A stretch of 60,487 bases of DNA, filler included. It is 6 parts of 6 records of this genome, joined end to end, with 100 filler letters (N's around TTAATTAATTAA, not from the genome) between each part and the next. Parts side by side here need not be neighbours in the genome. Positions count along the whole stretch, not along the records: positions 24,066 to 30,091 come from DRR723986_26549; 5 more parts are not named here. One strand, given 5' to 3'. Below the pieces are notes generated by a model. The model was not told the DNA's origin, searched no databases, and worked only from the letters and a program-made list of their open reading frames with translations. The translations under genes were made by a program, and so were the position numbers. Shown here piece after piece: positions 2,283 through 49,883 of the stretch; the stretch's first letter is position 1, and each line of letters begins with the position of its first letter.

Positions 2283-2513
2283 TTGTAGTTGGTGTTTCCT
2301 AAAAAATTACTTCTAAATACTACTTTGGGTTAATCAAAGGTCAGCTTTATTCTATTTATTTCAAAAAAAATGCATATTTTTTTGTAAATACATAAAATTG
2401 TACTTTATCCTTTATAAATAGGGGGAAGTTAATTTTTTAGTGGTTTTTCGAAAAATAGGGGCATTAATCTTGCCATTTTTGAATACACCCACCCAAAGTT
2501 GTAGCATTATTAG

Positions 2514-2880: not shown

Positions 2881-3116
2881 ATGTATTATTTGTTTAAATA
2901 GTCCATTAGTCGTATCTATTTAGTGCATAGTGTTTTAGGTGAGTGTTCACCTGAGCTCATCCTGTTGATTTACATACAAAATTTACCCGAGTTCTCTTAA
3001 AACTCACTTTCAATTAACAATTTAATGCCTTGCTTAGGTAGTCGTCAGTGCTTTATTTGAGTTGTGCTGGGTTGAATATTGTTAGTATATTTTGAGCTTC
3101 TTAGATAAAATTTTGA

Positions 3117-4256
3117 ATGAATTCTCAAATTCCTTTATCCTTTCCGGTTTTTAATGGCAATGAAAATCAGTATACGCAACAGGCAATAAGCTCTGGGCAT
3201 ATTGCTACGAATGGTAGTTTTATAAGCAGATTTGAGGAGAAATTGTCTGCTAGATTGAAAACACATGAATGTGTTGCCTTGAATTCTGGCACCTCAGCTC
3301 TACACTTAGGAATGGTGCTTTTAGGTATTGGTCCAGGTGATGAGGTGATTTGTCAGTCCTTTACTTTTTGTGCTTCGGCTAACCCAATCGTCTATTTGGG
3401 CGCTACGCCTATTTTTGTAGACAGTGAAAAGGATACCTGGAATATTTGTCCTGAATTACTTGAGGATGCGATTCTAAGTAGGTTGGCAAAGGGTAAAAAA
3501 CCTAAGGCAATTGTGGTGGTTCATTTGTTCGGCATGCCTGCCATGATGAATGAGATTTTAGAGGTTGCGGAGAAGTATGGAATCCCTGTTTTGGAGGATG
3601 CAGCTGAGGCTATCGGAAGTGAATTTGAAGGCAGACCCTGTGGCACCTTAGGGCAGATAGGAGTATTTTCCTTCAATGGAAACAAAATAATGACTTCAGG
3701 AGGAGGAGGAGCTTTGATTAGTACTGACTCAGCCATAATTCAGCGAGCCAAATTACTTTCGACTCAAGCCAGGGAAGATTTTCCTTTTTACCATCACTTG
3801 GAAATTGGCTATAATTACAAGATGAATAATATTTCTGCTGCAATTGGTTTAGCCCAGTTGGAACAGTTGGATAGGTTTATCAAAAATAGAAGAGCTGTAA
3901 ATCAGAGGTATAGGGAGTTGCTGGAGGATTTTCCAGGAATAGAATTTCAATCAGAGGGAAAACAATCCTACTCAAATTATTGGCTCACTAGTATTTTCAT
4001 TGATCAGGAAATAACTGGATTTTCGAATGATCAATTAAAACTTGCGTTATCAAAACAAGGAATTGAAAGCAGGTATCTCTGGAAGCCTCTCCATACCCAG
4101 CCTGTTTTCAATTTAACACCTTTCTATGGAGGAGGTATTTCCGAAGGGTTATTTGAAACTGGCCTTTGCCTTCCCAGTTCTGCAGATTTAACTTTGGAAG
4201 ATCAAGAAAAGGTTGTGAATGTGTTACAGGAAGAATTAAGTAAAACTCATAAGTAG
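3117..4256 (+). CDS. DegT/DnrJ/EryC1/StrS PLP-dependent sugar aminotransferase (PglE/EpsN-like)
   Basis: NSGTSALHL, EDAAEAIG, SFNGNKIMTSGGGG (PLP lysine), GYNYKM. Confidence 0.93.
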   Translation: MNSQIPLSFPVFNGNENQYTQQAISSGHIATNGSFISRFEEKLSARLKTHECVALNSGTSALHLGMVLLGIGPGDEVICQSFTFCASANPIVYLGATPIFVDSEKDTWNICPELLEDAILSRLAKGKKPKAIVVVHLFGMPAMMNEILEVAEKYGIPVLEDAAEAIGSEFEGRPCGTLGQIGVFSFNGNKIMTSGGGGALISTDSAIIQRAKLLSTQAREDFPFYHHLEIGYNYKMNNISAAIGLAQLEQLDRFIKNRRAVNQRYRELLEDFPGIEFQSEGKQSYSNYWLTSIFIDQEITGFSNDQLKLALSKQGIESRYLWKPLHTQPVFNLTPFYGGGISEGLFETGLCLPSSADLTLEDQEKVVNVLQEELSKTHK

Positions 4257-23935: not shown

Positions 23936-23965
23936 GGAGTGGTAGTTCAGCTGGTTAGAATGCCT
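23936..23965 (+). tRNA. 5' part of a tRNA, most likely tRNA-Asp (truncated by contig end before the anticodon)
   Basis: GGAGTGGTAGTTCAGCTGGTTAGAATGCCT: acceptor 5' strand and D-arm typical of tRNA-Asp. Confidence 0.8.
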
Positions 23966-24065: not shown

Positions 24066-24421
24066 TCCGCCACTGATTGCAACCGCTTCTGATTGCTCTG
24101 ACTTGCGTTGCGCGATGGTTTACTGCAACGTGGAATACAAAGCCAAATCACGACCAACTTCAACAGCCAAGCTTGGCAACACACTTTAAGCTGGCAACGC
24201 TTTTCCCACTTAACCCACGCTTTGCTTGAACTGACCGAGGGCGGTTTTCGAGGGCGCTCAGCGTTGGCTGCATCGGCGGTAAGTCACCGGTTCAGAATTC
24301 GGCCACGAGCTATCCCCCTCCGTCGGTCCAATTTTGTTGGCAACTCGCATCGGCGTCAGCCACCCTGGATTATTTCCGGTATTCCGGAGCTGGCCTTCGC
24401 GAACGACTCAGCGACTCGATC

Positions 24422-25864
24422 TCAAATGTAGAACTTGAACTGCGGCAACGGCATGACGCTAATCGGGATTTCACGCATCACATTGCTTACAGCCCGGGAA
24501 AACTTCAAAGTGATGGGTTCTGCGGCGGCAAAGAACGCCGAGTTCCAATTCAGCTTCGACAAGGCGAGTATCTCGGAACAAATTTGCTCCATCGAAGCAT
24601 CGCCGTAATGATCGGCGATTTGGAGAGGCGACGGCACATGACCGTGAGGGAATGCTCGCATCGTCGGGATGTATCCCGTCGAATAGAGATACGTAATGTC
24701 ACCAACCGAAAACTGGGTTCCCCGGAGTACCGGATACGATGCCTGTCGCAACAGCCGAACTCGGTCGTTCGACCAAACTGATACAAGATCAAACTCAGGT
24801 ACGTTACTCACTGCACGCTGAAACCCCAACCGTTCACCGGGCCAGTATCGGGAGCTTTTGTGAATGACCACACGACGCGGCGTCTGCTTCGTTTCATCGC
24901 GATAGCGTTTGAGTGCTTCTGCGATAAGTTGCCTCGCTTGCTTTTCGTCCAGATGGGGACTCTTACCCATTTCGGACTGATCCCACTGGAAGTCCTTGCC
25001 ACGAAGAACAATGCCTTCCCCGCTGTCGTCGAAGGCTTGAGCAACGCTCGTTTGCATTGTCCCAGCTTCGCTGCCCAGCGGAGGAAAGAAGCTGACGCCG
25101 ATGTAGAGCGTGCCATTTGATTTCAACTTAGGCCCCCAAGGCGTCCCGCCCGCCTTGTAATGCAGCCCAGTAAAGAAGTTCCATGCACACCGTGCTTTGT
25201 GGTCGACGTTTCGCGATTTCGGAGTCGCCTCGCTAGTTCGTTGCAAAAGAATTTGCGTTGGGATGCGGTATCGCATCGACTCAGCCTTCATTGCGCGACG
25301 GAAATCGCGATGCATCAAGCCAAGATTCGGGTCACGGTAGTCTACGGTTCTACAATGCTCTAACAGTTCATCCGGCAGCGCTAACACTATGACTTGCGGC
25401 TCAGACTCCTTCTCAGAAAGCAGCCGGATTTTGTCTGACACCAATTCGACTGACGCTTCAAACCTGTGGCGAAGAGATTTGATTCCCGCGATCGCCGCAA
25501 TCTCGTTCTTGGTTACCGTTTCTCGCCAACCAGTGTCCATGATCGGGCGAGTGTAGAAGCCACGGTCTTCACGATAGCCGGGGAAATCCATGTTCACGCC
25601 ATCGCCGGATACGCCAGCGGAACAGTCATCAATCCAACTTTCCGCCGACGCAATGGAATGTCCGCTTCCGATAAATCCAATCCGCACTGAAGCAGGATGC
25701 CGTGAGTCTGATTCAACAAAACGAGGCCCGTAAAGAGAAATCCCTGCTTGTGGAGACACATGCTCCCTTCCGCAACCGAATACCAGCAAGGGTTCCTCGT
25801 GGTAACGGCACGTGACGCGAGGCAACACCAGTTCGTCACTGGCGGTTTGTAAGCTACTCGTCAT
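24422..25864 (-). CDS. Short prokaryotic Argonaute (MID-PIWI only), catalytically inactive
   Basis: EEPLLVFG...GISLYGP start; MID motifs DFRRAMKAE, IPTQIL, WNFFTGLHYKAGG; PIWI LYIGVSFF, VVIHKSS, LSKLNWN, EPITLKFS; C-terminal KFYI; no N or PAZ domain; tetrad aspartates absent. Confidence 0.93.
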   Translation of the reverse strand: MTSSLQTASDELVLPRVTCRYHEEPLLVFGCGREHVSPQAGISLYGPRFVESDSRHPASVRIGFIGSGHSIASAESWIDDCSAGVSGDGVNMDFPGYREDRGFYTRPIMDTGWRETVTKNEIAAIAGIKSLRHRFEASVELVSDKIRLLSEKESEPQVIVLALPDELLEHCRTVDYRDPNLGLMHRDFRRAMKAESMRYRIPTQILLQRTSEATPKSRNVDHKARCAWNFFTGLHYKAGGTPWGPKLKSNGTLYIGVSFFPPLGSEAGTMQTSVAQAFDDSGEGIVLRGKDFQWDQSEMGKSPHLDEKQARQLIAEALKRYRDETKQTPRRVVIHKSSRYWPGERLGFQRAVSNVPEFDLVSVWSNDRVRLLRQASYPVLRGTQFSVGDITYLYSTGYIPTMRAFPHGHVPSPLQIADHYGDASMEQICSEILALSKLNWNSAFFAAAEPITLKFSRAVSNVMREIPISVMPLPQFKFYI

Positions 25865-27131
25865 CTTTCAATTCTACCCTTCCGTAATCCAAGACTTGCA
25901 AATACGCCGAGGCAGAGAAAAGGTCGTCCTCGTAATCGATGGCTTTTTCTTTTGGCATGTCGTCGAAGACTCCCGGCCAGTCAATGGTTGGCTGGATTAA
26001 TCCCGTTGGAACGACAATCGATTGGTTTCCAAGATCGAAAATGATTCGGGGGTTGCCATCGCTTAAAAAGTCTCGCCAGAAGTGGACTTCCTTGTGTACG
26101 TCGACGTTGTACATCCTTGACTTGCGGCTGGTGGCCTTTTTCGTTGTTCGTTTAGGCGACAGCGGTATGCTTCCATCTTTCGTGAAGCGACGCTCAGGAC
26201 GAATGGACAAACACCAGCTAGCGGTATCAACTCGTTCAAATCTCAGGCCAACCGCAAGATGTTCCCAGAACCCTTTTCCTTCGCCGGTCTTCTTCGTTAT
26301 CGGTTCGCGAGCAACGCTCAAAGTCGACTTACGTCCCGTCATCGTGAAGTAGACAATTTTACGTTCTTGGTCGACATCCTTGGGTGGGAAGTAATAACGC
26401 TTGTGCTTCCTATCGAGCATCAACCCGTGTCTGCCAGTAAGCTTGTTCAAAGACCGATTGAGAAGGTCTGAGTACCAGCGAAGCTTGTCAGGATCGGGCC
26501 ACCACGTTTCAAACGCGTCCTCCTCGTCAAAGCCGTTTAGGTCAACGAATTCGTCGAACGGACTATCGTCGCGAGACAAATCGAAGAACGCATACAGCCT
26601 CTTTCCCCGAATAATGAACGGCAGCATCATGCCAGAACTCGGTGCGTGCCCCATGTTCTTGGCGACCGTTGTTTCCTTGGACGTGCAGGGAGCTGAATAG
26701 ACAACGCGAGGCATGCGCTCGACCGAAAGCAACGTGCTTGCGACTGTCTCCGTTGTAGTCTCGCATGGCTCATGCAAGCACTTGAATCGGTCTTCGTAGC
26801 TTAGACTCGCATCGACCCATCGTTCATGATCTGTCTTGGTCTGAACCAGTTTGTTGACTGGGTACTTGGCGATCTGACGATCAATTATCGTGTGGTGCTT
26901 GGTGCAGAGCAGTATCAGGTTGTCATAGCCATCGATATCGCCACCGGGAATTGGGTTGTCGCGTCGTGGCCCATCGTCGCGTTGCCCGACGATATGTGCC
27001 ATCTCGCCAAGAAGCACATCCGGGTCGTCCTCGGTGGATTCTTCATACAGTTTGCACCTGCAATCCGGAAACGCACACCGAGAACCGGAACGAGTCCACA
27101 GAATGAACTTCGTGCGGGCGGTAATAGACAT
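25854..27131 (-). CDS. HNH endonuclease-APAZ fusion, predicted effector partner of the short pAgo (start revised to ATG 27131)
   Basis: GGAGAAG RBS before ATG 27131; N-terminal RCAFPDC...GEMAHI...GPR...YDNLILLCTKHHTIID HNH; C-terminal APAZ-like LLNRSL, RYYFPP, FWEHLAVGLRF, LSIRP..RFTKDG, MYN...VHFWRDFL; overlaps the pAgo start by 11 nt. Confidence 0.85.
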   Translation of the reverse strand: MSITARTKFILWTRSGSRCAFPDCRCKLYEESTEDDPDVLLGEMAHIVGQRDDGPRRDNPIPGGDIDGYDNLILLCTKHHTIIDRQIAKYPVNKLVQTKTDHERWVDASLSYEDRFKCLHEPCETTTETVASTLLSVERMPRVVYSAPCTSKETTVAKNMGHAPSSGMMLPFIIRGKRLYAFFDLSRDDSPFDEFVDLNGFDEEDAFETWWPDPDKLRWYSDLLNRSLNKLTGRHGLMLDRKHKRYYFPPKDVDQERKIVYFTMTGRKSTLSVAREPITKKTGEGKGFWEHLAVGLRFERVDTASWCLSIRPERRFTKDGSIPLSPKRTTKKATSRKSRMYNVDVHKEVHFWRDFLSDGNPRIIFDLGNQSIVVPTGLIQPTIDWPGVFDDMPKEKAIDYEDDLFSASAYLQVLDYGRVELKDDE

Positions 27132-27301
27132 CGCTTCTCCGTTGCTAAAGGCGGAATCAATCCATCGAGCCGGTTTCGCCAATTATCGCGTAGAAACAAT
27201 CAGAGGCGAGCCAAGAATACTGCAATCTTCCCGGGTATTTCCCAGCCGATCAGCGGATACAATCTCGGTTTTTCCAAGGTTATCCATCGGCAACCTGCAA
27301 G

Positions 27302-30091
27302 ATGCAGTCACTTCCACTCTTCAAAGACGAATACCTTTTCTCGCACTGGCAAGATGAGTTTCAAGACTTCAAAGAGAGTGGCGATGCGCAACTACTCGAA
27401 ACACTCAAAGACTGGGATGGTCGCGACAAGTCACTGACAGAGCGCCAGCTTGACGGACTGTTCGTCACGAAAATATTTAGAGATATCTGGGGATACTGGG
27501 GCACAGGATCGCAAGGAGCAGCCGTCGGCTACACCTTGCTCCCGGATTATTCGGTGCCCGGAGCGGGGCAAGGTGGAGGAACTGGCAAAGCCGATTTGGC
27601 ACTCGCAAACTTCGGAAATCCCGATTTTTCCGACATTCCTCAGGCTCTCTGCGAATTCAAAGACATCAATTCCGGCTTGGATTCACCGCAAAAGCGGAAA
27701 GGGAACAGTCGCTCGCCGGTGAAGCAGTGTCTCGATTACCTCAAGCATTCGTTTGATGCGGTTTCGACCAACCCGCAGGTCACACCGACATGGGGAATCG
27801 TCACAGATATGAATGAGTTCCGGCTCTACTGCCGGAAGGAGGGCGACGCACGCTGTCAACGATTCGTCATTTCATCCAATAGTGCGGATGGCATTTCACT
27901 ATTGGATGAAACACCCCAAGCGGCAGAACAACGATTCCTGTTTCAGAAGTTGTTCAACCGAGAGTTGCTATTAGCTACGCACGGCAGCAGTGAACTCGAA
28001 AAACTTTTGGGTCGTCAATGGACACTTGAGAAAGCTCTCGAAAAGAATTTCTATTTCGAGTACCAAGCTTATCGGCAGCAGGTGTACGAGTCGATTCTGG
28101 AGGCTAACCCTGACTTCACGGGCACGCGAGGAGAACTGGTGCGGATGACGCAGCGATTTCTTGACCGCTGCATTTTCTTGTTGTTCTGCGAGGACATGGG
28201 AAAGGCATTGAGTTTCCCAACAGACTTGCTTCGGGACATTCTGATTCGAGAAAGCAATTCAGAAACCTTCTCACCTGACTTTGACAACATCTGGGCGCTC
28301 GTCAAACAGCTATTCAAGACAATGCATGACGGTGGAGTGTTCCCTCCTAACCATCAGATTCATCGGTTCAATGGCGGTCTATTCGACAGACTGGAGCAGC
28401 TTGAAAATCTACGGATTCCAAACCGTGTGTTTTGCACAAAGGGCCAAGGCGAGAGCAAGGAGAAACTCGCTGAATTCAAGAATACGCTGCTGTATCTTTC
28501 TGCTACCTACAACTTTGGCGCGATATCGGCGGGTGAACGCGAGCGGACGATTACCCTATACGCACTTGGTCGAATTTTTGAGCAGTCGATCACCGACCTT
28601 GAGTACATGCACGCCGAGGCCGATGGCGTTCCGACCGTTGCAAAACTGTCGAAGCGGCGACGTGACGGAGTTTATTACACACCGGAATGGGTAACTCACT
28701 TCATCGTGCAAGAAGTCATTGGAAGACGCCTAGATGAAGAACGTGATGCACTTGGGTTAGAGTTTGGCATAGAGTTCAAACCTGAGGACATCGCGAAGTA
28801 CGCGCGTGCTCGAAGAAAGCCAAGAACCAACCCCGTGACACAGCACATCCAGAAGCTTGATTCGTTTCAATCCTTTTTGGATGGCATCACAGTTCTCGAT
28901 CCAGCTTGTGGTAGTGGTGCGTTTCTTATTCAAGCTCTGCAATACCTTCAACAAAGGCAACGTGACATCGCGATTGAACGTGAACGCGTGACGGGAGCGA
29001 TCTCACTCTTCGACCAAGACGCGATTATTCGCAGCATCTTGGCGAACAATTTGTATGGGGTGGACATCAATCCCGAGTCTGTAGAAATAACACAGTTGGC
29101 ACTTTGGCTAAACACAGCGGCTCCCGGTAAGCCGCTTACAACCTTGGATCAAAACATCCGCTGCGGCAACTCTTTGGTCGGCAGCGATTTCGAGAGGTTT
29201 TACGACAACAAACACAAGCAACAAAAGCTGCTTTTCGACCAAGCCGATGCTGGCGAACGTGAGAAGGTCAATGTCTTCGACTGGGCTGCTGCTTTCCCTG
29301 ACGTGCTTGGGCCGGATGTGGAGGAGTCGCAACGTGGATTTGATTGTGTCATTGGCAATCCGCCATACGTCAAGTTGCAGCACTTCAAGAAGGTCGTTCC
29401 GGATGTTGCGGACTATTTGTCGAAGGGTACGACTGAAGTTGAGATTCCCGACACAGATGAAACAGTTAAGCAGCGAGTCTACGAGAGCACCAAGTCGAAG
29501 AACTACGATCTGTATTTGCCTTTCATCGAGCGTGGGATGTCGCTCCTGAATCAGCAAGGGTGTCTCGGCTACATCGCGCCGAGCGTTTGGCTGCTCAACG
29601 AGTATGGCGTTGGCTTGAAAACGCAACTGCTGAAATCGCGCGGACTCACGCGATGGATTGACTTCAAGGACTTCCCTGTTTTTGATGAAGCCATGACCTA
29701 CACGGCTTTGCAATTCTATCGTGGGAAGCCGAGCGACTCGATTGCATTTTCCGCAGCTCGCGATGGTCAACTTGCGACCATCAAAACCGAAGGACATATC
29801 GACTACGCGACACTTGACGCCGATGAAACATGGGTATTTCTGCCAGATAGAGAACGTGAACTGATTGACCGGCTTAGCGAAGAAAACACACGGTTGGACA
29901 CAATCGAGTGTGTCAATGGAATCACCGTCGGAATTCAGACGAGCGCGGACTACGTATTTCATCTCGAAAGGCTTGGAGCAAACAAGTACAAGCACGACCC
30001 GCCGAAAGGAGAATCCGAGGAAGTAGTCATTGAAGATGCCATAATGAAACCACTGTTATCGGGTGGAGTGCCTACCTTTTTCTGGTCCATG
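27302..30091 (+). CDS. Type IIG (Eco57I-like) fused restriction endonuclease/N6-adenine methyltransferase, 3' truncated
   Basis: ADL...CEFK PD-(D/E)xK-like nuclease, RFNGGLF, GVYYTPEW, motif I VLDPACGSGAFL, motif IV IGNPPY. Confidence 0.9.
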
Positions 30092-30191
30092 NNNNNNNNN
30101 NNNNNNNNNNNNNNNNNNNNNNNNNNNNNNNNNNNTTAATTAATTAANNNNNNNNNNNNNNNNNNNNNNNNNNNNNNNNNNNNNNNNNNNN
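30092..30191. other. Artificial contig spacer
   Basis: 100 nt of N with TTAATTAATTAA. Confidence 0.98.
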
Positions 30192-30857
30192 GCAATACCA
30201 GTCGTAGAAGCTCATGCAGACGCCACCGATCATGGACAGGTAACGGCTGCCCGCGGCGTAGGAGACCATGGACATTGCAGGAATCGGAGAGAAACCGATG
30301 ATACGGTCCGGGCCGAACTTCTTGGCAGTGTAGACGTTAGAGGCGGCAATCAGCTCGTTGACTTCGTCCCAGCTGGAACGGACAAAACCGCCCATACCAC
30401 GGCGAGGCTTGTACTCGGCGGTCTTGGCGGGATCTTCAACGATAGAGGCCCAGGCTTCCACCGGGTCATTGAACTGGATACGGGCAGCACGCCAGAGCTT
30501 CATCAGGCTCTTGCGCATCAGCGGGTATTTCAGGCGATTGGCACTGTACATGTACCAGGAGTAGCTGGCGCCACGAGGGCAACCACGGGGCTCGTGGTTG
30601 GGCAGATCCGGGCGGGTGCGGGGATAATCGGTTTGCTGGGTTTCCCAGGTAACCAGCCCGTTCTTCACGTAGATTTTCCAGCTGCAGGAGCCGGTGCAGT
30701 TCACGCCATGGGTGGAGCGCACGATCTTGTCATGCTGCCAGCGCTGGCGGTAGCTGTTCTCCCAGTCGCGGTTCACTTCGTGGGTTTCACCGTGACCGTT
30801 GGAGAACGATTCGCGGTTCTTCCTGAAGTAGTTCAACTTGTCGATCAAATGACTCAT
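30192..30857 (-). CDS. narG: Respiratory nitrate reductase alpha subunit, N-terminal part (truncated by contig end)
   Basis: MSHLIDKL start at 30857 with [25 protein letters not shown]0 motif, [22 protein letters not shown]. Confidence 0.97.
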
Positions 30858-30910
30858 GGTCTCTCTCTCCATCAACCCGTTTGCCGGATCGTTGTTCCGA
30901 ATGGAGACCA

Positions 30911-30924
30911 TTGTGTGGGATCAA
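30911..30924 (-). promoter_or_regulatory. FNR/Anr-like box upstream of narG
   Basis: TTGAT-CCCA-CACAA on the minus strand vs consensus TTGAT-N4-ATCAA. Confidence 0.6.
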
Positions 30925-30965
30925 ACCCCTGAAATCTGCGTGGTTACTACCACATAACCCGGGTG

Positions 30966-30981
30966 TACCACCCTGTGGGTA
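30966..30981. promoter_or_regulatory. NarL 7-2-7 site
   Basis: TACCACC-CT-GTGGGTA inverted heptamers resembling TACYYMT. Confidence 0.5.
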
Positions 30982-30987
30982 GGCGAC

Positions 30988-32268
30988 CTATAACCCGGGT
31001 TGGAGAAGCATCTTTCGCTCCTCTCTGCGGGCATGTCGGGAGAAAAGCAGCAGGCTGACACTCAGTAACACGAAGAGAATCATGAACACCGCCGTACGCA
31101 CGCCCAGCCACAGGTTCAAGCCACCAAACGCAACTGGCAGGACAAACGCAACGGCACAGGCGCTGACCAGCAATACACCGGCAAACAGGGACGCTTCCTG
31201 TCGGTTGGCCAGAATCACCATACGCTGAAGGGATCCCATGGCGGTACCCATGGCCACCCCCAGAATCACGACCAGCGCGCTTTCAAGAACAACCGGCAGA
31301 GCAAACTCCACAACCAGTTCCTCTTCCACACCGGTAATGAACAAAGTCATGGGGGGATAGGACAGCACCACGAGTGCCATCAGACAACCCGCCAGTGCCC
31401 GCGTCGCAACCCGGGCGGAACCGAAATGATCGGACAAGCCTCCACCGGCCACCTGGGCCACCGCACCGGGAATGACAAACCATTGCGCCAGGCGGGCCCC
31501 GGAATCCAGCGTAAGACCATACTGGCCTGAGAGGAAATCCGGAAGCCACAACGCCAGCGCAAAGAAACTGCCGGCAACCACACCGAAATACAAACACAGG
31601 GGTAGATTCCGACCCTGCCGGATCACCCCGAGAATTTCTCTGGCTGATCGTTCACGGCTTTCGTCTTCTTCAACCGTGGCGTCGGTCAGCATAATCAACA
31701 GCGCGATCACCAGAAGCAGGGTAATGAGGTAGGCCAGAGGTACGCCCTGCCAGGAGAACGCCTCATGGAACAGCGGCACCAGATAATAGTTGAAACCCGC
31801 TCCGGTTACCCCGGAGCCAAAAACCCCGAGCACGAGACCCAGCCGCCTGGGCTGGCAATGACTGACCACAAACTGCAGACCGGCGCCGTAGAAACCGCCC
31901 GCCAGCCCCAGCCCGGCGGCGGCAATAAGGTAGCCAATGTAGGTGTTTGTCAGCAGCAGTATCCCCATGCACACAGCAAGACCGCACAGACACAACAGCA
32001 TGACTTCACGGGCACCATATCGCTGCGCCGCAAGCCCGGCCGGAATCGCAAGTATGGCGCTGACCGCCATGGGCATGGCCAGAAGAATCCCAAACTGCAA
32101 ACTGCTCAGACCCAGGTCGGCTCGGAGATGCACGCCGGCAACCGCAAACAGTGTCCAGCAACCGGCAGCCACCACAAAGCCGGTCAGCGCCAACGGCAAC
32201 ACTACTGCCAGAGATGCTAACCTCTCTTCATCCCGTTCCGATTGCATTACACGCTCCCTGAATCCCAT
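30988..32268 (-). CDS. NarK/NNP-family MFS transporter homolog with substituted substrate-binding residues
   Basis: 12-TM MFS; GLAGGFY...GVFGSG nitrate-signature-like motif, FALALWLP, LSYPP; lies between narG and narX. Confidence 0.8.
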   Translation of the reverse strand: MGFRERVMQSERDEERLASLAVVLPLALTGFVVAAGCWTLFAVAGVHLRADLGLSSLQFGILLAMPMAVSAILAIPAGLAAQRYGAREVMLLCLCGLAVCMGILLLTNTYIGYLIAAAGLGLAGGFYGAGLQFVVSHCQPRRLGLVLGVFGSGVTGAGFNYYLVPLFHEAFSWQGVPLAYLITLLLVIALLIMLTDATVEEDESRERSAREILGVIRQGRNLPLCLYFGVVAGSFFALALWLPDFLSGQYGLTLDSGARLAQWFVIPGAVAQVAGGGLSDHFGSARVATRALAGCLMALVVLSYPPMTLFITGVEEELVVEFALPVVLESALVVILGVAMGTAMGSLQRMVILANRQEASLFAGVLLVSACAVAFVLPVAFGGLNLWLGVRTAVFMILFVLLSVSLLLFSRHARREERKMLLQPGL

Positions 32269-32340
32269 TCTTTAGTCTCGACTTTTGCCTGAACACGGGT
32301 CAAAGGCTATGATGGGTTATAAACCATTGGGGTAATTGAC

Positions 32341-32356
32341 TATCCTCAAGGAGGTA
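32341..32356. promoter_or_regulatory. NarL 7-2-7 site in the divergent narK-like/narX region
   Basis: TATCCTC-AA-GGAGGTA; a weak FNR-like TGAAC-N4-GTCAA lies at 32290-32303. Confidence 0.55.
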
Positions 32357-32429
32357 TCACGACGGCGCGTTTTCCACGATAATTTTGCTGCCTGTCACTA
32401 TCCACATCCCTTGAGCCTTGAAGCTATCC

Positions 32430-34286
32430 ATGACCTCCAGAAGCCCGCTAGTAAATCGACTGGCTGTTGTTATCGGCGCCATCGTGCTGACGGCCATTGT
32501 CAGCATGGCCACCACTCTGGCTGTGTCCAACAGCATTGAGGGCAATGCCACTGCTATCAACCTTGCCGGTTCACTGCGTATGGGAGCATTCCAACTGGCG
32601 GCAAGATCGGCCTCTGAAGATCCCGTAGAAAACACTGACACCCTTGATCAACGCATTGAGGAGTACGAGGACAGGCTCAGGGATCCCGCCATCATCCGTT
32701 CCATTCCCCGCACCGATGATCATCCCCTCGTCGAACAATATAAAACCGTGGAATACGGCTGGGCCAATCAGCTCAGGCCGTCACTGGAGAGCCACCAGAC
32801 TGGCGCCCCTCTATCCGCCGAAATGATCACGACAGTGGAGAGCTACACGGTAGAAGTGGATCGCTTGGTCTCCATGCTGGAACAACGCACCGAGGCCAGA
32901 ATCGACCTGCTGCACCTTATCCAGATCATCAGCATGGTGTTCTCGGTATTGATTGTTCTCGCCCTGTTTCTGGACCTCAAAAACCGCATTCTCCGGCCGC
33001 TGCGGAAACTGGTGGGCATTGCCACCGCCGTGGGCGAACAGGATTTCAGCCACAAAGCCGATCTCAAAGGCTCCGATGAGCTGGCACAACTGGGCCAGGC
33101 CTTTGACCAGATGACCAGTGAACTGGCGCTGACCTACTACGAGCTTGAAAGCCGGGCCAGGCAGAAAACCGAGGAACTTGAAATCAGCCATGCGGCTCTG
33201 CAGGTAATGCACTCCGCCAGCCGAGGGCTGTTCGCCAATCATGATCTGTGCAGTGGCGCCATCCCGATGCTGCAGGATCTGGAGCAGTTGCTGGGCATCG
33301 GTCCTATCCGCCTGTTCCTGCATGACAAGGAATCGGCAGAACCGGTGGAGGCCATTACCACTGCCACACCCAAACGCCCCTTCTATTGCCGGGATCACCA
33401 TTGCAATGCCTGTCTGGTAACCCCCGAGGTCTATGATGAGATGCCGCTGGAAAATAATGATGGCCGGCGGCTGTTGCTGCCAATCCGAACTCCCGGGCAG
33501 TTGCTGGGCACACTGGAGGTCTGGTATCCGGCTGAAAAAGGATTACCGGAGACCTCGCGCCGCCTGCTGGAGACCCTGACCGACCAGTTGGCAACTGCCA
33601 TTTTCCTGGAAAAACAGATCACCGAAGAACAACAGCTGACGCTGGCAGAAGAACGCACGGTGATTGCCCGGGAGCTACACGATTCCCTGGCACAATCGCT
33701 CTCGTACCTGAAAATGCAGGTGACCCGTCTGCGCCGGCTGAACATTGATGGCGAGCAGAAGCCCATCCACGATGACATCCTGGATGAACTGAGCACTGGC
33801 CTGAACAGCGCCTACCGCCAGCTGCGGGAACTGCTGGCCACCTTCCGGCTGAAACTGGATACGCCTGATCTGGCGACTGCCCTGCGTAAAACCATCGACG
33901 AATTCTCAGAGCGCCTCGGTAAACCGGTAGCGTTTGAATACAACCTGCCGCCCCAGACGCTGTCGCCCAATGAGGAAATCCACACCCTGCAGATCATTCG
34001 TGAAGGGCTGGCCAATGCCGTCAAACACGCCGATGCCACTGACATAGCTGTAAAAGTAGTGTTCGATTCACCACAAGTGCGGGCCAGCATACAGGACAAT
34101 GGCAGGGGATTACCGGGTGGCGACCAGCCCGTGAACCACTATGGCCTGATTATCATGCAGGACCGTGCCCGCACACTCGGCGGCAAGGTTAATGTGCGAA
34201 ACAGGGATGAAGGCGGCGTGGAAGTCGCGCTAACATTCGTACCCAAGAGCCGCAATCTGATTCCAACGGAAACTACGCCGGCCTGA
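32430..34286 (+). CDS. narX: Nitrate/nitrite sensor histidine kinase NarX/NarQ
   Basis: P-box [14 protein letters not shown], Cys cluster [35 protein letters not shown]. Confidence 0.93.
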
Positions 34287-37019: not shown

Positions 37020-37511
37020 GTGTCTGTTGCACGGAATCCGCGCTGCCTGCGGGGCAAGAGATTCTTTCTGGCCAATCATTGAGTCAACCGCAGAGTTTGA
37101 TTGCCGGTTCGCCCACAGACTTGCTACCACTGTTCCAGCGATTCACTCGCTTGGGGGGACGGGCTGCTTTTAAGGTCACTCTGATGGGCATCAGATAGAC
37201 AAAAAGCGATTGTCGATAAATCGGGACTGCCCCGATGTGATCGACCTGCTGTACGGTTAGGGAAACCTAATCCATGGCCCTGTCGGAAAATGAGTGTGTA
37301 ATAGGTACGATGTTTGTGTTGGCTGTCGGGGATGAGAGCCTAACACGGCGCGTTTGACCTATTTTGATGTCTTTTGAGGCATCAGGCGACGACTAGAATA
37401 GTCGGCGAACACACCTCCTTTGTGCGTGAATCCTGCCGGTGAAGGTCCGGCAAACTGGATGGGTAATAAGGCCAAAAATGGCCAAGAGAAGATGGGATGC
37501 GTGAGGCACCG

Positions 37512-38909
37512 ATGACACAAGAAAAATGGGGACAGCTCAGAGAGCGGCTGCTAAAAACCGTCGGCCAAAACAACTACACAACGTGGATTGAGCCGCTGGA
37601 ATTTGAAGAACTGCAAGACGGGGTTGCAGTGTTTACAGTTCCGACCAATTTTATGGGGAACTACGTCAGCCAGAACTTTGCTGATTTGATCCTGTACGAA
37701 CTGAATACCTCGGGTGAGACGGTCCAGCGGCTGGCCTTTCGGGTTGCTGCTAATTCAACCGCACGTCCTGCGGCGGCCAATACCACAGCACAACCCGTGA
37801 CCGCACCAACGGCACCCAGCCTGAGCAGCAGGGCCGCCGTATCCGCGTCACAGGACCAGATGGAATCACTGCAAGCCGCCCCGCTAGATGCGCGCTTCAC
37901 GTTTGACCGCTTTGTCGTTGGCAAACCAAACGAGCTGGCACATGCCGCCGCGCGTCGCGTTGCCGAAGGGGGTCCCGTCACCTTCAATCCGCTGGTTCTG
38001 TACGGTGGGGTTGGACTTGGTAAAACGCACCTGATGCATGCCATCGCGTGGGAGCTGAAAACCCAGAAGCCTGAGTTGAACGTGCTCTATCTGTCTGCCG
38101 AGCAATTCATGTATCGCTTTGTTCAAGCCCTGCGTGAACGTCGGATGATGGATTTCAAACACCTGTTCCGGTCGGTTGATGTTTTGATGGTCGATGACGT
38201 TCAGTTCATCGCAGGCAAAGACTCAACTCAGGAGGAGTTTTTCCACACATTCAATGCCTTGGTTGATCAGAACAAGCAGATCATCATCTCGGCTGACCGC
38301 GCCCCCGGCGAGATCAAAGATCTGGAAGATCGCGTAAAGTCCCGCCTTCAGTGTGGCTTGGTCGTCGATCTGCATCCGACCGACTACGAATTGCGCCTTG
38401 GCATCCTGCAAAACAAAGTTCAGCAGCACAGCGCCACCTATCCGGGCTTGGAAATTGCCGACGGCGTTCTGGAGTTTCTGGCCCACCGCATCTCGACCAA
38501 CGTGCGTGTTCTTGAAGGGGCACTGACCCGCTTATTCGCGTTTGCCTCTTTGGTTGGCCGTGAAATCGATATGGACCTGACCCAGGATTGTCTGGCCGAT
38601 GTTCTCCGCGCCTCTGAACGCAAGATCACTGTGGAAGAGATCCAGCGCAAAGTATCGGATTATTACAACATCCGCCTCAGCGACATTATTGGCCCCAAGC
38701 GGTTGCGCTCGTACGCGCGTCCACGTCAGGTCGCGATGTACCTGTGCAAGCAATTGACCAGCCGTTCGCTGCCGGAAATCGGGCGGCGGTTTGGTGGCCG
38801 CGATCACACCACCATCATGCATGGTGTACGTCGTATCGAAGAGTTGAAATCGACCGACGGCCAGATCGCCGAAGACGTCGAAATGCTGCGCCGCGCGCTC
38901 GAAGCTTAA
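37512..38909 (+). CDS. dnaA: Chromosomal replication initiator DnaA (start revised to ATG 37512)
   Basis: YGGVGLGKTHL Walker A, DDVQF, QEEFFHTFN, RVLEGAL, GGRDHTT; GAGG RBS. Confidence 0.98.
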   Translation: MTQEKWGQLRERLLKTVGQNNYTTWIEPLEFEELQDGVAVFTVPTNFMGNYVSQNFADLILYELNTSGETVQRLAFRVAANSTARPAAANTTAQPVTAPTAPSLSSRAAVSASQDQMESLQAAPLDARFTFDRFVVGKPNELAHAAARRVAEGGPVTFNPLVLYGGVGLGKTHLMHAIAWELKTQKPELNVLYLSAEQFMYRFVQALRERRMMDFKHLFRSVDVLMVDDVQFIAGKDSTQEEFFHTFNALVDQNKQIIISADRAPGEIKDLEDRVKSRLQCGLVVDLHPTDYELRLGILQNKVQQHSATYPGLEIADGVLEFLAHRISTNVRVLEGALTRLFAFASLVGREIDMDLTQDCLADVLRASERKITVEEIQRKVSDYYNIRLSDIIGPKRLRSYARPRQVAMYLCKQLTSRSLPEIGRRFGGRDHTTIMHGVRRIEELKSTDGQIAEDVEMLRRALEA

Positions 38910-38931
38910 GACCCATACCCATTTTCTATTT

Positions 38932-38962
38932 GGCCCTGAACCTCGGTTCGGGGCCTTTTTTT
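38932..38962 (+). terminator. Rho-independent terminator after dnaA
   Basis: GGCCCTGAACC-TC-GGTTCGGGGCC followed by T7. Confidence 0.85.
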
Positions 38963-39144
38963 GTTCGTAACATGTGTGCACATTTCCACGATTCACCACC
39001 AACTGTGCTATTCGTGACACGCCCCCCTTGACGCCCTTGATTTTCCAACCGACAAATCCATGAAAAACCTTGTGTTGCAGGGGCAAACAGTTACGTTGCC
39101 TGTCCCGGCTTCCAGTAATGGTCCAAGTCAAAGGATATTAGGGT

Positions 39145-40263
39145 ATGAAAATCAGCATCGAACGCGGCACGCTACTTAAGGCCGTGTCTCAGGCTCAGTC
39201 GGTTGTCGAACGTCGCAACACCATCCCGATCCTGGCAAACGTGCTGATCGAGGCCGAAGGCGAAAGCGTTCAGTTCCGCGCCACCGATTTGGACATCGAA
39301 GTCGTCGACAAAGCCTTGGCACAGGTGGAACGCGCGGGCGCAACCACCGTCGCAGCGACCACACTGCATGAAATCGTGCGCAAGCTGCCTGATGGGGCCT
39401 TGGTCACACTCACCGCAGATGCCGCAGCCGGTCGTTTGACCGTCGAAGCAGGTCGGTCGAATTTCTCACTGGCTACCTTGCCACGCGAAGATTTCCCGGT
39501 CATGGCATCGTCGGAATACCAGTCGAATTTCTCGGCCCCTGCTGCGGTCTTGCGCCGATTGTTCGACAAATCAAAATTCGCCATCTCGACAGAAGAGACA
39601 CGGTACTACCTGAACGGCGTTTATATGCACATTGCCGAAGCCGAAGGCGGCAAGGTCCTCCGTTGCGTTGCCACGGACGGCCACCGTCTTGCGCGGATTG
39701 ACGCGGATCTGCCAGCCAACGCGAGTGATATGGCAGGCGTCATCGTCCCCCGTAAAACCGTGGGTGAGCTGCGCAAGTTGCTGGACGACGACGAAATGGA
39801 TATCGCCGTTTCTGTCAGCGAAACCAAAATCCGATTTGCAACACCCGACATCACCCTGACCTCTAAAGTCATTGATGGCACGTTCCCCGATTACACCCGT
39901 GTGATTCCACAAGGCAACACGCGCCGCTTGGAAGTGGACGCAAGCGAGTTTGCCCAAGCGGTAGATCGTGTTGCAACCGTATCCTCGGAACGTTCGCGTG
40001 CCGTTAAACTGCAGTTGGAAGAGGATCGGTTGATCCTGTCGGTCAACGCACCCGACAGCGGTGCCGCCGAAGAAGAGCTCGCGGTAGCCTATGGCGATGA
40101 ATCGCTCGAGATCGGATTTAATGCGAAATACCTGCTGGAAATTGCCAGCCAAGTTGATCGCGAAAACGCTGTATTCATGTTCAACTCTGCCGGTGATCCG
40201 ACCCTGATGCGCGAAGGCAACGATCAAAGCGCCGTCTATGTCGTTATGCCGATGCGGGTTTAA
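39145..40263 (+). CDS. dnaN: DNA polymerase III beta sliding clamp
   Basis: RRNTIPILANV, ETRYYLNG, ATDGHRL, FPDY, VVMPMRV. Confidence 0.98.
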   Translation: MKISIERGTLLKAVSQAQSVVERRNTIPILANVLIEAEGESVQFRATDLDIEVVDKALAQVERAGATTVAATTLHEIVRKLPDGALVTLTADAAAGRLTVEAGRSNFSLATLPREDFPVMASSEYQSNFSAPAAVLRRLFDKSKFAISTEETRYYLNGVYMHIAEAEGGKVLRCVATDGHRLARIDADLPANASDMAGVIVPRKTVGELRKLLDDDEMDIAVSVSETKIRFATPDITLTSKVIDGTFPDYTRVIPQGNTRRLEVDASEFAQAVDRVATVSSERSRAVKLQLEEDRLILSVNAPDSGAAEEELAVAYGDESLEIGFNAKYLLEIASQVDRENAVFMFNSAGDPTLMREGNDQSAVYVVMPMRV

Positions 40264-40320
40264 CCGCCTGAAATCGATAGCTTTGGCGCACTTTCGTGAC
40301 CAGACAAAGGAGGCGGCCTC

Positions 40321-41418
40321 GTGTTGGCTCTGACGGCGCTGACTCTTTCTCATTTTCGTTCGCACAAACTGGCGCGGCTCTCTTTGGATGGCCGCCCTGT
40401 TGCGATTCATGGCGCGAACGGGTCAGGCAAAACAAACATCCTCGAAGCGGTGTCGTTGTTTTCCCCGGGACGGGGAATGCGCCGTGCCAGCGCCGCCGAT
40501 ATGGCCCGCCGTCCCGAGGCTTTGGGTTGGAAACTGTCCGGGTTGCTCACGGTTCTGGGACAAACCCACGAAATCGAAACATGGTCTGACCAAGGCACAG
40601 CACGGCAGGTCAAAATCAACGATAAATCCGCCAACCAGATCGCTCTGGGGCGTTTGGCCCGGGTGGTTTGGCTGATTCCCTCGATGGATCGGCTCTGGGT
40701 TGAAGGGGCCGAAGGACGGCGGCGGTTCTTGGACCGCATGGCCCTCAGCTTTGACCCTTCCCATGCCGAAGCATCTCTGACCTACGAAAAGGCGATGCGC
40801 GAACGCAATCGCTTGCTCAAAGAGCAGATACGCGATGCGCATTGGTACACGGCGCTGGAAAACCAGATGGCCACGGCCGGGTCGCTCATTCATCAAGGGC
40901 GCGTCACTGCCCTTGCCCAATTGGAGGCCGCACAATCCAAGGCCGAGACGGCATTCCCATTCGCGGATTTGGAGCTAACCCAAACCGAAGGCGCCATGCC
41001 CGAGACTGAGTCCGATTTTCGGGATGCCTTGGCAGAAAGTCGATTTCGCGATCTGGCTGCGGGACGGACCCTTGTTGGCCCCCACCGCAGTGATATCTAT
41101 GGCGTTTTCGCAGCCAAGGGCGTGCCCGCCAAAGACTGTTCCACCGGCGAACAAAAGGCGCTGCTGGTGTCTCTGATCCTCGCCAATGCCCGCGCCTTGG
41201 CAGAACAAGTCGGTGCACCACCCATCGTGTTGCTGGATGAAGTCGCCGCGCATTTGGATGCTGATCGCCGCGCCGCGCTTTATGATGAAATTTGTGCCCT
41301 TGGCGCACAGGCGTGGATGACCGGAACCGGCCCCGAACTGTTCGCAGAACTTGGGGACCGAGCGCAGGTGCTGCACGTGTCCGAAGATGACGGCATTTCA
41401 CAGGTGACCAACCAATGA
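40321..41418 (+). CDS. recF: DNA replication/repair protein RecF
   Basis: GANGSGKTNILEA, RRRFLD, GPHRSD, STGEQK, LLDEVAAHLD. Confidence 0.97.
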   Translation: MLALTALTLSHFRSHKLARLSLDGRPVAIHGANGSGKTNILEAVSLFSPGRGMRRASAADMARRPEALGWKLSGLLTVLGQTHEIETWSDQGTARQVKINDKSANQIALGRLARVVWLIPSMDRLWVEGAEGRRRFLDRMALSFDPSHAEASLTYEKAMRERNRLLKEQIRDAHWYTALENQMATAGSLIHQGRVTALAQLEAAQSKAETAFPFADLELTQTEGAMPETESDFRDALAESRFRDLAAGRTLVGPHRSDIYGVFAAKGVPAKDCSTGEQKALLVSLILANARALAEQVGAPPIVLLDEVAAHLDADRRAALYDEICALGAQAWMTGTGPELFAELGDRAQVLHVSEDDGISQVTNQ

Positions 41419-44690: not shown

Positions 44691-45824
44691 ATGAGCTTCC
44701 TGCGTTACGTCGTGCTCGACGACTTGTTGTGCACAGCAAAGGGAAAAGAGATTGCCAAAAGAGCGGCAGAGGTCGCTCCTATGTGTCACAAACTCGCAAA
44801 ACGTTTTGAGAGATTCAAAGATCTGCTACCAAACAAACGATGCTACACCAGTGAGCGACGTGCGATTTCAAGTATCAGAATCTGTGATCTGCACCACGAA
44901 GGAACTAAAAGGCTTCTCGAAGATTGCGAGAAGAACCTCCAGCTAATGCAGTCTTGTAAAGCTGGCGCGACTTGCAGTTTGATTGGTTGCCCTAAGTGTT
45001 CGCCTGAGCGCCGCGCAAGAGAAACTGCGCAGGTTGCGGCGTACCTAGAAACCACTATCCGAGAACGCGAAAAGCAGTCTGGTGAGCAGTGCCTGTTATT
45101 CTTGGTTACGGTCACAAATCGATCCGCATGGGCCAGACCACTGAATGAAGCGCGCGCGATCGTAACCGGTCGGCGCAACTCACTGCGGAAAGCGATTGAC
45201 TCGATCGGCAAGGCTGTCACAGTGACTTCGCCATTGGGTGGCGTAGTAGGTGAGGTTACAGATATCGTGAGTTCCATTGACTACTACTACGATTCACCAC
45301 CTGGAATCAATGAGAAGACAAGTCGACTCAACATTCAGGACCGTCTAGAAGCTTCACTCGACATTCACCTCCACTCTCTAGTTGTTTTTCGCCCCTACTA
45401 TCAGCCTACTTTATACAGGTCGGGCGTACAGCGTGCCGGATTTGCGCAGCCGCTCAGGTCAACACTGCGGGACTTGTTTTCACCTAGCTATTCAGTCCAC
45501 GTAAAGCAGATCTCAGAAGGTTTCACAACGAGAACACTCGAACAGCTATCGCAAGAAGAAAGTGCCCGATTCGATGCGGCCACCCAACCGCTAGTGGAGG
45601 TTCTCAGTTACCTCGGAAAAAGTACAACTTGCGATCTTTCCTCATCTCAAGAGCGACCGCTGATCCAAGCCGTCGTTGGCACCGCCCTACGTTCCGCGAA
45701 GTCGATCCTCAAGGGCAAGGCTTTCATTCTGCGATCAAGATTTCTGGATGAGTGCCACCAGAACATCTACCAAACCGAGCGAGACTTCAAAGCTCAGATT
45801 GAAGCTGCTGAGAGACGCCATTGA
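44691..45824 (+). CDS. HUH-superfamily rolling-circle replication initiator (Rep_1-like)
   Basis: Cys cluster C...CSLIGCPKC..RR, motif I FLVTVT, motif II IHLHSLV, motif III EVLSYLGK, in canonical order. Confidence 0.72.
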   Translation: MSFLRYVVLDDLLCTAKGKEIAKRAAEVAPMCHKLAKRFERFKDLLPNKRCYTSERRAISSIRICDLHHEGTKRLLEDCEKNLQLMQSCKAGATCSLIGCPKCSPERRARETAQVAAYLETTIREREKQSGEQCLLFLVTVTNRSAWARPLNEARAIVTGRRNSLRKAIDSIGKAVTVTSPLGGVVGEVTDIVSSIDYYYDSPPGINEKTSRLNIQDRLEASLDIHLHSLVVFRPYYQPTLYRSGVQRAGFAQPLRSTLRDLFSPSYSVHVKQISEGFTTRTLEQLSQEESARFDAATQPLVEVLSYLGKSTTCDLSSSQERPLIQAVVGTALRSAKSILKGKAFILRSRFLDECHQNIYQTERDFKAQIEAAERRH

Positions 45825-48110: not shown

Positions 48111-49883
48111 ATGTCGGTAACACCACGGGGGCTGAGCATCCAGGCCGCTTATCGCGACTTTGCTGACGGGAAGTTCCTGGTCAACAGAAAATACCAACGG
48201 AAGCTGGTTTGGACGCGAGAAGAAAAGCGAAAACTCGTTGACAGTATCCTGAAGGGGTATCCGATACCCCTGATCCTCCTGGCGACCGAAACCGCGCCGG
48301 ACGGGGCCAAGACTTTCGAAATCTTGGATGGCATGCAGCGCCTTAACGCAATTTTCGAGTTCATCGAAAACCACTTTGATATCGATGGCCGTTTCTTCCG
48401 ACTTGAAGAATTATCGCGAGCTAAACAACGTCAAGAAGAGGGCGTGTTTGAGCTTCCGGGTTCTCGAACGGGCTTACTCACCAAAGAAGAGTGTTCAAAT
48501 TTCGTCGACTACACTCTCGCGATTACCGAATTTCCCGCTACCGACGAAACGGCAGTTAACGATGTATTTGGAAGAATCAATGCATATGGCCGGCGGCTTA
48601 GCAATCAAGAGCAGAGACAGGCAGGCGTCGTTTCAGGATTTGCAACTTTGGTCAGAACCCTCTCAGCAGAAATGCGGGGTGATGTTTCGCGAGAAACGCT
48701 CGACCTTGCGGAAATGCCATCGATCAGTATCGACCCAGACGACAGCTACGGCATAAAGGCCGACGACACTTTTTGGTGTCAGCAGGGGATTCTGAGGCGG
48801 AATCAGCTCCGCGAGGCAGAGGATGAGCAAATGGTCGCTGACCTAGTCATCTCGATATTGCGTGACGAGCCATTCGCGTTTAGCGGTGCAAATCTGAATG
48901 AATACTATGACACGACTTCCACTCAGTCTGCGGAAATCGAGAGGCTTATAAGCCGACACGGAGCAGAGTCCCTTAAAGAATCTATGCTTTCAACGCTAAC
49001 AATTATTCTGGAGGGATTTCGAAGCATTGATTGCTCCGCAAATGCAATGAAGCGAATATTAAATCCCGATGCGGGTGCAAATCCCATCAAGGGCCCTTTC
49101 TATGCCGTATTCATCGCGTTCTACGAGTTGTGTGTTCAAGAAGAGAAGTCACCCAACGACTTTGCAGGAATCACCTCCGCTCTCACGGGACTACAAGAGA
49201 AGCTGAATGTTGCGCGGGGGCAGGTGACGGCAGATGCACGCCGTCAAAACATAGATTTGACGAAAGGACTTATCGACAGATTCTTTGATGAACGCGATCC
49301 GCCTTCAGTCAGTACCGGCTCTGGATTGGGCATCCGATTGTCAAATGCGCTAAGGAGGTCAAGGGTTGAGACTGCGGCGTTCGAAACCAAACAAGGGTTG
49401 GTAGATTTAGCTGCGACGAGAATCGAGAATCAGAATGTATTGAGTGATGTGTTGGAAACCATCTGCGCTATTGCCAACCTTGGTCCGAACAGCGATGGTG
49501 CAGTGTTTATTGGGGTAGCTGATAACCAGAACGATGCGACTCGTATAGAACAGCTGGATCGCATTCACTCAATACAAGTTGGGGCAAGGTTCATTGTGGG
49601 CGTGGAACGTGAGGCCTCTATTCTGGGAATAGATCTAGACACTTACCTGCAGCGGATTTCGCAGAAAATCTCGAATTCAGGACTCAGCGAACCCTTGAAA
49701 ACGTCTGTCCTTGGAAAACTGGATTGTATTGATTTCAGGTCCCTCTCGGTGATTTCAATCTGGGTCCCGCCGCAGGAAATAATGTCAACGCTCAATGATG
49801 AGCTCTTCGTGCGTAAAGGAGCAAATACTGAACGCGTAAGTGGTGTATCCTCGATAAATGCTGTGCAATCCCTATTCAATTAG
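48111..49883 (+). CDS. DUF262 (GmrSD N-terminal, ParB-like) fused to a C-terminal Schlafen/AlbA_2 domain
   Basis: YQRKLVWT, LVDSILKGYPIP, EILDGMQRL, VFGRINAYG..LS.QE (DUF262); ETAAFETK, ETICAIAN, GAVFIGVAD, FVRKGANT (AlbA_2). Confidence 0.85.
   Translation: MSVTPRGLSIQAAYRDFADGKFLVNRKYQRKLVWTREEKRKLVDSILKGYPIPLILLATETAPDGAKTFEILDGMQRLNAIFEFIENHFDIDGRFFRLEELSRAKQRQEEGVFELPGSRTGLLTKEECSNFVDYTLAITEFPATDETAVNDVFGRINAYGRRLSNQEQRQAGVVSGFATLVRTLSAEMRGDVSRETLDLAEMPSISIDPDDSYGIKADDTFWCQQGILRRNQLREAEDEQMVADLVISILRDEPFAFSGANLNEYYDTTSTQSAEIERLISRHGAESLKESMLSTLTIILEGFRSIDCSANAMKRILNPDAGANPIKGPFYAVFIAFYELCVQEEKSPNDFAGITSALTGLQEKLNVARGQVTADARRQNIDLTKGLIDRFFDERDPPSVSTGSGLGIRLSNALRRSRVETAAFETKQGLVDLAATRIENQNVLSDVLETICAIANLGPNSDGAVFIGVADNQNDATRIEQLDRIHSIQVGARFIVGVEREASILGIDLDTYLQRISQKISNSGLSEPLKTSVLGKLDCIDFRSLSVISIWVPPQEIMSTLNDELFVRKGANTERVSGVSSINAVQSLFN

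Follow-up and report, generated by a model that had tools for sequence, protein, structure and literature searches.

The DNA analyzed here is a 60,487-base stretch, referred to below as the window, which consists of six joined contigs, and the subject of this study is a pair of genes on the second of them (contig 2, 6,026 bases). The first gene encodes an effector in which an HNH nuclease domain precedes an APAZ domain, and the second encodes a short prokaryotic Argonaute (pAgo) of the MID-PIWI type. Together they very probably constitute a SPARHA (short prokaryotic Argonaute, HNH-associated) system, a class whose biochemistry, structure and activity in vivo were reported by Kanevskaya et al. 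(Nat Commun 2025; PMC12738770). A sequence-only reading of the window had given the name SPARHA to HNH-associated short pAgos, and the paper bears this out. The features of the gene pair and its control region are listed below; residue numbers of the effector refer to its 425-amino-acid form, unless the longer open reading frame (ORF) of 442 amino acids is named.

25854–27131, minus strand: HNH-APAZ effector gene, from its ORF and its match to Protein Data Bank (PDB) chain 9om4_A; 425 amino acids plus stop from a conserved ATG.
26790–27131, minus strand: HNH (His-Me finger) nuclease domain, residues 1–114, from PADLOC, Pfam and PDB matches.
25875–26768, minus strand: APAZ domain, residues about 122–419, from PADLOC, the 9om4_A alignment and AlphaFold2 (AF2)/Foldseek.
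25864–25854, minus strand: overlap of the two genes, 11 nt, ATGACGAGTAG, which holds the stop codon of the effector gene and the start codon of the pAgo gene.
24422–25864, minus strand: short pAgo gene, MID-PIWI; 480 amino acids plus stop, ATG start.
27132–27301, no strand: intergenic region of 170 bp from which the SPARHA operon and a type IIG restriction-modification gene diverge, containing the ribosome-binding site GGAG.

Both ORFs are intact, with neither stops nor frameshifts, and the two-gene operon with an 11-nt overlap, which the sequence-only reading had proposed, was read directly at these coordinates. Among 12 related loci obtained by a scan of genome contigs, the overlap has the same length in three (L001, L002, and L012) and is 8 nt long in two others (L003 and L004). 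The longest HNH-APAZ ORF (25854–27182, minus strand) begins with a TTG at 27182 and yields 442 amino acids, 17 more than the ATG form. The ATG at 27131, residue 18 of that ORF, is nevertheless the better start, because the aligned ATG starts all 11 uninterrupted homologues from the related loci, because PDB chain 9om4_A begins at the same position, and because the GGAG at 27140–27137, which falls within the TTG-extended frame, is invariant in 4/4 aligned upstream regions. A terminator scan gave five terminator-like sites, all within coding sequences and not above shuffles (mean 3.7), and an Rfam search covering the whole of contig 2 returned nothing at E up to 0.1. A 107-amino-acid Arg/Ser-rich ORF on the opposite strand, in the 356 bp 3′ of the pAgo gene (24066–24421), was set aside as spurious-looking by eye.

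The N-terminal part of the effector is an HNH nuclease domain. PADLOC matched residues 18–131 of the 442-amino-acid ORF to SAVED_HNH models of the Cap5 type, from the cyclic-oligonucleotide-based antiphage signalling system (CBASS), at 1.7e-28, Pfam found HNH_2 at 1.7e-05, and in the PDB search the HNH part matched the Cap5 structures 7rwk (E 1.2e-14), 7rwm, 8ysq, and 8fm1. The zinc ligands are C19, C24, C76, and H79, the catalytic residues are H46, N71, and H80, and the bridge residue is E43. Seven of these (C19, C24, E43, H46, N71, C76, and H80) are invariant in 12/12 aligned effectors, while H79 is kept in 11 and is a Cys in L010. Throughout the HNH domain the 425-amino-acid numbering equals that of the Acidithiobacillus caldus (Aca) effector, and the residues which match published inactivating mutation sites, H46, N71, H80, and E43, are all present. 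In the published systems, activity is abolished by H53A in the Mlla effector or by N71A/H80A in that of Aca, and E50A, at the bridge residue, inactivates the Mlla system (PMC12738770). Mlla H53 and E50 map by the motif E-x-x-H to H46 and E43 of the contig 2 effector. A zinc-binding HNH domain resembling that of CBASS Cap5, with the motifs CAFPDC, AHI, and NLILLCTKHH, was what the sequence-only reading had seen in this gene; the motifs are present in the translation, and the matches and conserved zinc ligands agree with it on both the domain and its likeness to Cap5.

That reading had further assigned an APAZ-like C-terminus to the effector, and the fold check, which had been set beforehand, did not refute it. 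Residues 139–390 of the 442-amino-acid ORF match the Aga_*-PNTD1-PNTD2 APAZ models of PADLOC, which derive from SIR2-, REase- and TIR-APAZ proteins, with a best value of 4.3e-35. The effector as a whole aligns with 9om4_A, titled 'HNH endonuclease', at E 4.9e-126, query 18–436 (442-amino-acid ORF) to chain 1–418. An AF2 model built from a 12-sequence alignment had a mean predicted local distance difference test score (pLDDT) of 76, and between residues 131 and 320 most 10-residue blocks averaged at least 84, two dropping to 77 and 70. When this model was searched with Foldseek, 9om4_A came first (E 2.1e-26, target-normalised template modelling score 0.86, 44% identity over 276 columns), followed by the APAZ chains of SPARDA and SPARTA. 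The predicted structure thus confirms an APAZ fold for the C-terminal part of the effector.

The second gene was expected to encode a MID-PIWI pAgo, and this holds, since PADLOC matched it to pAgo_I at 1.4e-143 (model positions 3–455 of 455) and it aligns without gaps to 9om4_B, titled 'MID-PIWI family protein' (E 3.7e-168, query 17–480 to chain 8–471). The Pfam Piwi match is weak (0.0041, below the gathering score). The PDB bit scores are 563 for 9om4_B (SPARHA) against 224 for 9qbp_B, whose partner chain is titled SPARDA in the Foldseek output, 161 for 8qlo_B (SPARTA) and 78 for 8in8_C, and by this ranking the protein appears closer to the SPARHA pAgo than to the pAgos of the other short-pAgo systems. 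In the Aca pAgo the guide 5′-phosphate and U2 are contacted by D178, R180, K184, I196, and D212 (PMC12738770). Their equivalents, at an offset of 9, are D187, R189, K193, I205, and D221, invariant in 13/13 pAgos, and the stretch of sensor loop 1 (SL1) equivalent to Aca 290–296 reads MGKSPHL, of which the G-x-SPH-L/M part is conserved. The gene pair, its domain architecture, its fold and its conserved key residues are established in this analysis, the domain matches being much too strong to arise by chance.

What such a pair does is known from three systems, MllaSPARHA, AcaSPARHA, and LheSPARHA, which co-purify as complexes of pAgo and HNH-APAZ and degrade double-stranded DNA only when guide RNA and complementary target DNA are both present, with a requirement for Mn2+ (PMC12738770). 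LheHNH-APAZ alone is constitutively active, from which it follows that the pAgo restrains the nuclease; target binding displaces SL1 and extends a connector loop, leading to filament assembly, and the HNH domains are proposed to act as Cap5-like tetramers with double active sites (PMC12738770). The connector-loop and interface-loop residues of Mlla are R273, D275, Q320, and R349. In Escherichia coli MllaSPARHA is triggered by the plasmids pCDF or pACYC, cellular DNA being destroyed, and its guides are 17–21-nt 5′-AU RNAs enriched for plasmid-origin transcripts (PMC12738770).

By analogy with these homologues we infer complex formation, the type of guide and target, filaments, DNase activity and defence for the contig 2 pair. 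The pAgo and HNH-APAZ proteins would pair as a heterodimer, with APAZ providing the N/L1/L2 lobe that the pAgo lacks and keeping the HNH nuclease inactive. Through its MID pocket the pAgo would take up small RNA guides of about 17–21 nt derived from abundant transcripts, and pairing of the guide with complementary invader DNA would displace SL1 and extend the connector loop. These loop changes would lead the heterodimers to assemble into helical filaments, the HNH domains would next associate into tetramers that have double active sites, and the cutting of double-stranded DNA, Mn2+-dependent and indiscriminate, would bring about cell death or arrest, that is, abortive infection. The sequence-only reading had likewise supposed that target recognition unleashes a non-specific DNase, which is the mechanism published for the three homologues (PMC12738770) and would extend to this pair by homology. 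We hold it very probable that contig 2 carries an intact SPARHA that works as its Mlla, Aca, and Lhe homologues do.

Several points weigh against so direct a transfer. The homologues from which the mechanism is taken are only about half identical to the contig 2 pair, AcaSPARHA being 44% identical over the APAZ part. The Aca residues which contact the bases A1 and T1′ are replaced, G163/R164 by R172/T173 and R367 by S376, and since these three residues differ, the 5′-AU guide preference may not carry over. The PIWI sites, as read by eye, are IGVSF (255–259) and HKSS (335–338), positions at which, we presume, active Argonautes carry G-x-D-V and R-D-G. Short pAgos are described as always carrying substitutions of the PIWI catalytic residues (PMC12738770). 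The strength of defence is uncertain even for the studied members, because the effects of AcaSPARHA in E. coli are weak and MllaSPARHA lowers the plating of 4 of 13 phages (PMC12738770).

The replaced base contacts, the single point at which the pair might behave otherwise than the studied systems, are also an argument for a SPARHA homologue that differs in detail, through another guide 5′ end, DNA guides or RNA targets, or activation by small oligomers, and the studied systems already differ in their 5′-nucleotide preference, Mlla accepting any, Aca preferring 5′-A and Lhe 5′-UU (PMC12738770). However, conservation extends to the 5′-phosphate pocket, to D221, which contacts U2, to SL1, and, in the effector, to the HNH N-terminal region and the bridge Glu; guides are RNA and targets are DNA in the three studied systems and, as far as the same source describes them, in other short pAgos, and we regard a homologue of this kind as quite unlikely. 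A further proposal is that of a Pirellulaceae sub-clade with a guide 5′ end other than the 5′-AU of Aca and Mlla SPARHA, perhaps combined with co-regulation with the type IIG gene. It is made because in this sub-clade R/K-T takes the place of G163-R164 and S/N/Q that of R367, close relatives having R or K and then mostly T at the R172/T173 positions. The 170-bp divergent region which the SPARHA and type IIG defences share could allow them to be co-regulated. The sub-clade proposal seems doubtful. That the copy is silent or decaying, with its defence lost, is hardly credible, for although a scan limited to sigma-70-type consensus sites found no promoter-like site, which also counts against a working system, the contig is short and shows little of its surroundings, and relatives can be inactivated, as in L006 where HNH-APAZ is split by a DDE transposase insertion, both ORFs are intact here with every functional residue checked kept, and protein identity to the relatives (83–89%) is well above DNA identity (73–77%), as under purifying selection.

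The preferred reading, an intact SPARHA, agrees with what was found among relatives. A protein search scored 8,000 candidates, of which 1,538 passed the threshold of E up to 1e-10; the top match had 91% identity and the best named one was Roseimaritima ulvae, at 83%. HNH-APAZ lies directly upstream of pAgo in 12/12 related loci. The closest loci come from metagenome-assembled genomes (MAGs) labelled Mariniblastus sp. (pAgo 89%, effector 86% identity), Novipirellula sp. (88%, 87%) and Pirellulaceae bacterium (83%, 79%), and those farther off (50–58%) carry the labels Gammaproteobacteria, Anaerolineae, Planctomycetales, Tepidisphaeraceae, Phycisphaerales, Steroidobacteraceae, and Thiodictyon. 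One locus, L011, has 52% identity to the contig 2 pAgo and 47% to its HNH-APAZ and is, on our own reading of the sequences, probably the locus most like the Aca chain. For the three closest loci, DNA similarity begins at the pAgo stop (24421/24422), or for L012 at 24807, where its own contig ends, and extends no further than 27145–27171. Since the similarity stops at the ends of the gene pair, the pair is a self-contained unit found in varying neighbourhoods. In a sample of 301 genomes from the family of the L001 genome, a pAgo match (E up to 1e-20) was present in 19, and at least 67% identity was reached in only 4 of those, a patchy spread that is usual for defence genes. In L006, from an Anaerolineae MAG, a 1.66-kb insertion (1673–3337) follows residue 344 of HNH-APAZ, the downstream pAgo being intact. 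An in-frame domain or intein was considered, both pieces being in one frame, and was rejected in favour of an insertion, as the gap holds many stops and a 470-amino-acid DDE_5 transposase ORF on the opposite strand.

One further gene on contig 2 lies beside the pair.

27302–30091, plus strand: type IIG restriction-modification gene (Eco57I/MmeI-like), divergent from SPARHA; cut by the contig end, with 930 of about 1350 amino acids present.

Pfam matched it to Eco57I at 2.5e-38 and to MmeI_Mtase and MmeI_hel, and PADLOC to REase_MTase_IIG at 2.2e-221 (model positions 2–807 of 1182). Its best relatives in the Pirellulaceae sample have 73% and 62% identity and open frames of 1349 and 1371 amino acids. 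Beside SPARHA in the related loci, its sole match was one of 22% identity in 1 of the 12, and the gene is neither part of SPARHA nor conserved next to it. In relatives the SPARHA operon adjoins other genes of defence type: L001 (5685–6647) has a TIR-domain protein together with an AAA_23/AAA_21 ATPase, and L012 (3355–6020) an HTH-WYL-WCX regulator together with a T5orf172/MUG113 protein.

As to the source of the DNA, the contigs and the N linkers between them lie as follows.

1–23965: contig 1.
24066–30091: contig 2.
30192–36479: contig 3.
36580–42540: contig 4.
42641–54938: contig 5.
55039–60487: contig 6.
23966–24065, 30092–30191, 36480–36579, 42541–42640 and 54939–55038: linkers, each made of two 44-N runs on either side of TTAATTAATTAA, ten such runs in all.

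The GC content differs widely, being about 0.40 in contig 1 (range about 0.31–0.43), about 0.51 in contig 2 (about 0.50–0.53) and 0.45–0.60 in the remaining contigs. Contig 1 matches G001, the nearest genome compared, at 96–98% identity across about 20 kb and is the only contig to do so; contigs 2–6 showed no match at the DNA level to G001 (99% complete), and a search of G001 for pAgo gave no match. On contig 4, dnaA, dnaN and recF lie consecutively (37497–41418, plus strand, GC about 0.55), also with no DNA match in G001. They mark a chromosomal replication origin, which any close relative of G001 would have in common with it, and the window therefore contains DNA of at least two organisms; nothing else points as clearly to a second organism as this region does. 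The assembly looks mixed, with contigs from more than one organism. The SPARHA contig probably comes from a planctomycete of the Pirellulaceae, going by its best relatives, namely Mariniblastus, Novipirellula, Pirellulaceae MAGs and Roseimaritima ulvae, and by the adjoining type IIG gene, for which the sample of that family contains a relative of 73% identity. Against the assignment stands the transferable nature of the defence genes that form both gene sets of this contig, which is why it is given as probable only.

The other contigs yielded observations of their own. Contig 1 encodes a protein with SprB repeats and stops, at 23937–23965, within an apparent tRNA gene, of which the 5′ half is present (GGAGTGGTAGTTCAGCTGGTTAGAATGCCT). 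Contig 3 encodes, at 30144–34286, a molybdopterin nitrate-reductase-like protein that the contig end truncates to its N-terminal part, and a 426-amino-acid membrane protein, both read by eye, and a domain scan found a PilJ-HAMP-GAF-HisKA_3 sensor kinase of the NarX/NarQ type; with a GC of 0.58, this gene set looks like a nitrate respiration cluster. On contig 5, the genes at 44691–45824 and 48111–49883 (plus strand) encode a protein with a weak Rep_1 match (2.3e-05, below the cut-off) and a 590-amino-acid protein with GmrSD_N (DUF262) and Schlafen AlbA_2 domains, and the region may be a small mobile element carrying another defence gene.

The sequence-only reading had placed any novelty in the clade or host rather than in the class. 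The class is indeed already characterized, structure included, and the contig 2 pair is an ordinary, apparently functional SPARHA member; novelty of the host, on the other hand, is not a claim that can be made from a window pieced together out of contigs from more than one organism. A literature search on short pAgo Argonautes in Planctomycetes found no paper, and one for 'HNH-APAZ' found only the SPARHA paper and its preprint. With this pair, a defence class for which both mechanism and structure appeared in print in 2025 gains an orthologue of planctomycete type, which is of small consequence outside annotation. It might be of use as a further candidate when tools are sought that detect DNA through collateral DNase activity, or in comparing guide 5′-end preferences among SPARHA clades, and if an altered guide 5′ end were true, it would be a SPARHA variant with altered programmability. 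As regards provenance, the lesson is that mixed contigs make a claim of a new host from an assembly label unsafe.

Compared with known systems, the pair is of the same class as MllaSPARHA and LheSPARHA, and shares with AcaSPARHA (9om4, whose Foldseek title is the filament form of the A. caldus SPARHA; PMC12738770) a two-gene architecture, with each chain aligning over its full length. In the HNH domain the catalytic and zinc residues stand at identical numbers (N71 and H80 among them), Y340 of the Aca APAZ corresponds to Y341, and the MID 5′-phosphate pocket, SL1 and the APAZ fold are common to both. The two differ in that identity is about half, in nine extra N-terminal residues of the contig 2 pAgo, and in their source, a planctomycete-like contig against a proteobacterium.

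SPARDA (9qbp, 9qbl, 9jsb) belongs, like SPARHA, to the S2B group of short pAgos (PMC12738770), is homologous to the contig 2 pair in its pAgo (E 2.7e-65) as well as its APAZ (E 5.6e-11; Foldseek 1.3e-15), and also combines collateral nuclease activity with activation through filaments. Its effector, however, is DREN/DUF4365, whereas the N-terminal 114 residues of the contig 2 effector match HNH models only, and the SPARDA chains match within residues 145–377 of the 442-amino-acid ORF, that is, in the APAZ part only. Membership in SPARDA was rejected, as the N-terminal domain is an HNH and not the DREN (DUF4365) fusion that defines it.

The HNH domain itself is closely related to that of CBASS Cap5 (7rwk, 8fmf; PADLOC 1.7e-28, PDB 1.2e-14), and the Cap5 HNH has been superimposed on that of SPARHA, with the same tetramer activation proposed (PMC12738770). 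Membership in CBASS was likewise rejected, since the effector is without a SAVED sensor and the Cap5 matches end at residue 131 of the 442-amino-acid ORF, after which APAZ follows. While Cap5 is activated by a cyclic nucleotide, SPARHA is activated by target binding of its pAgo.

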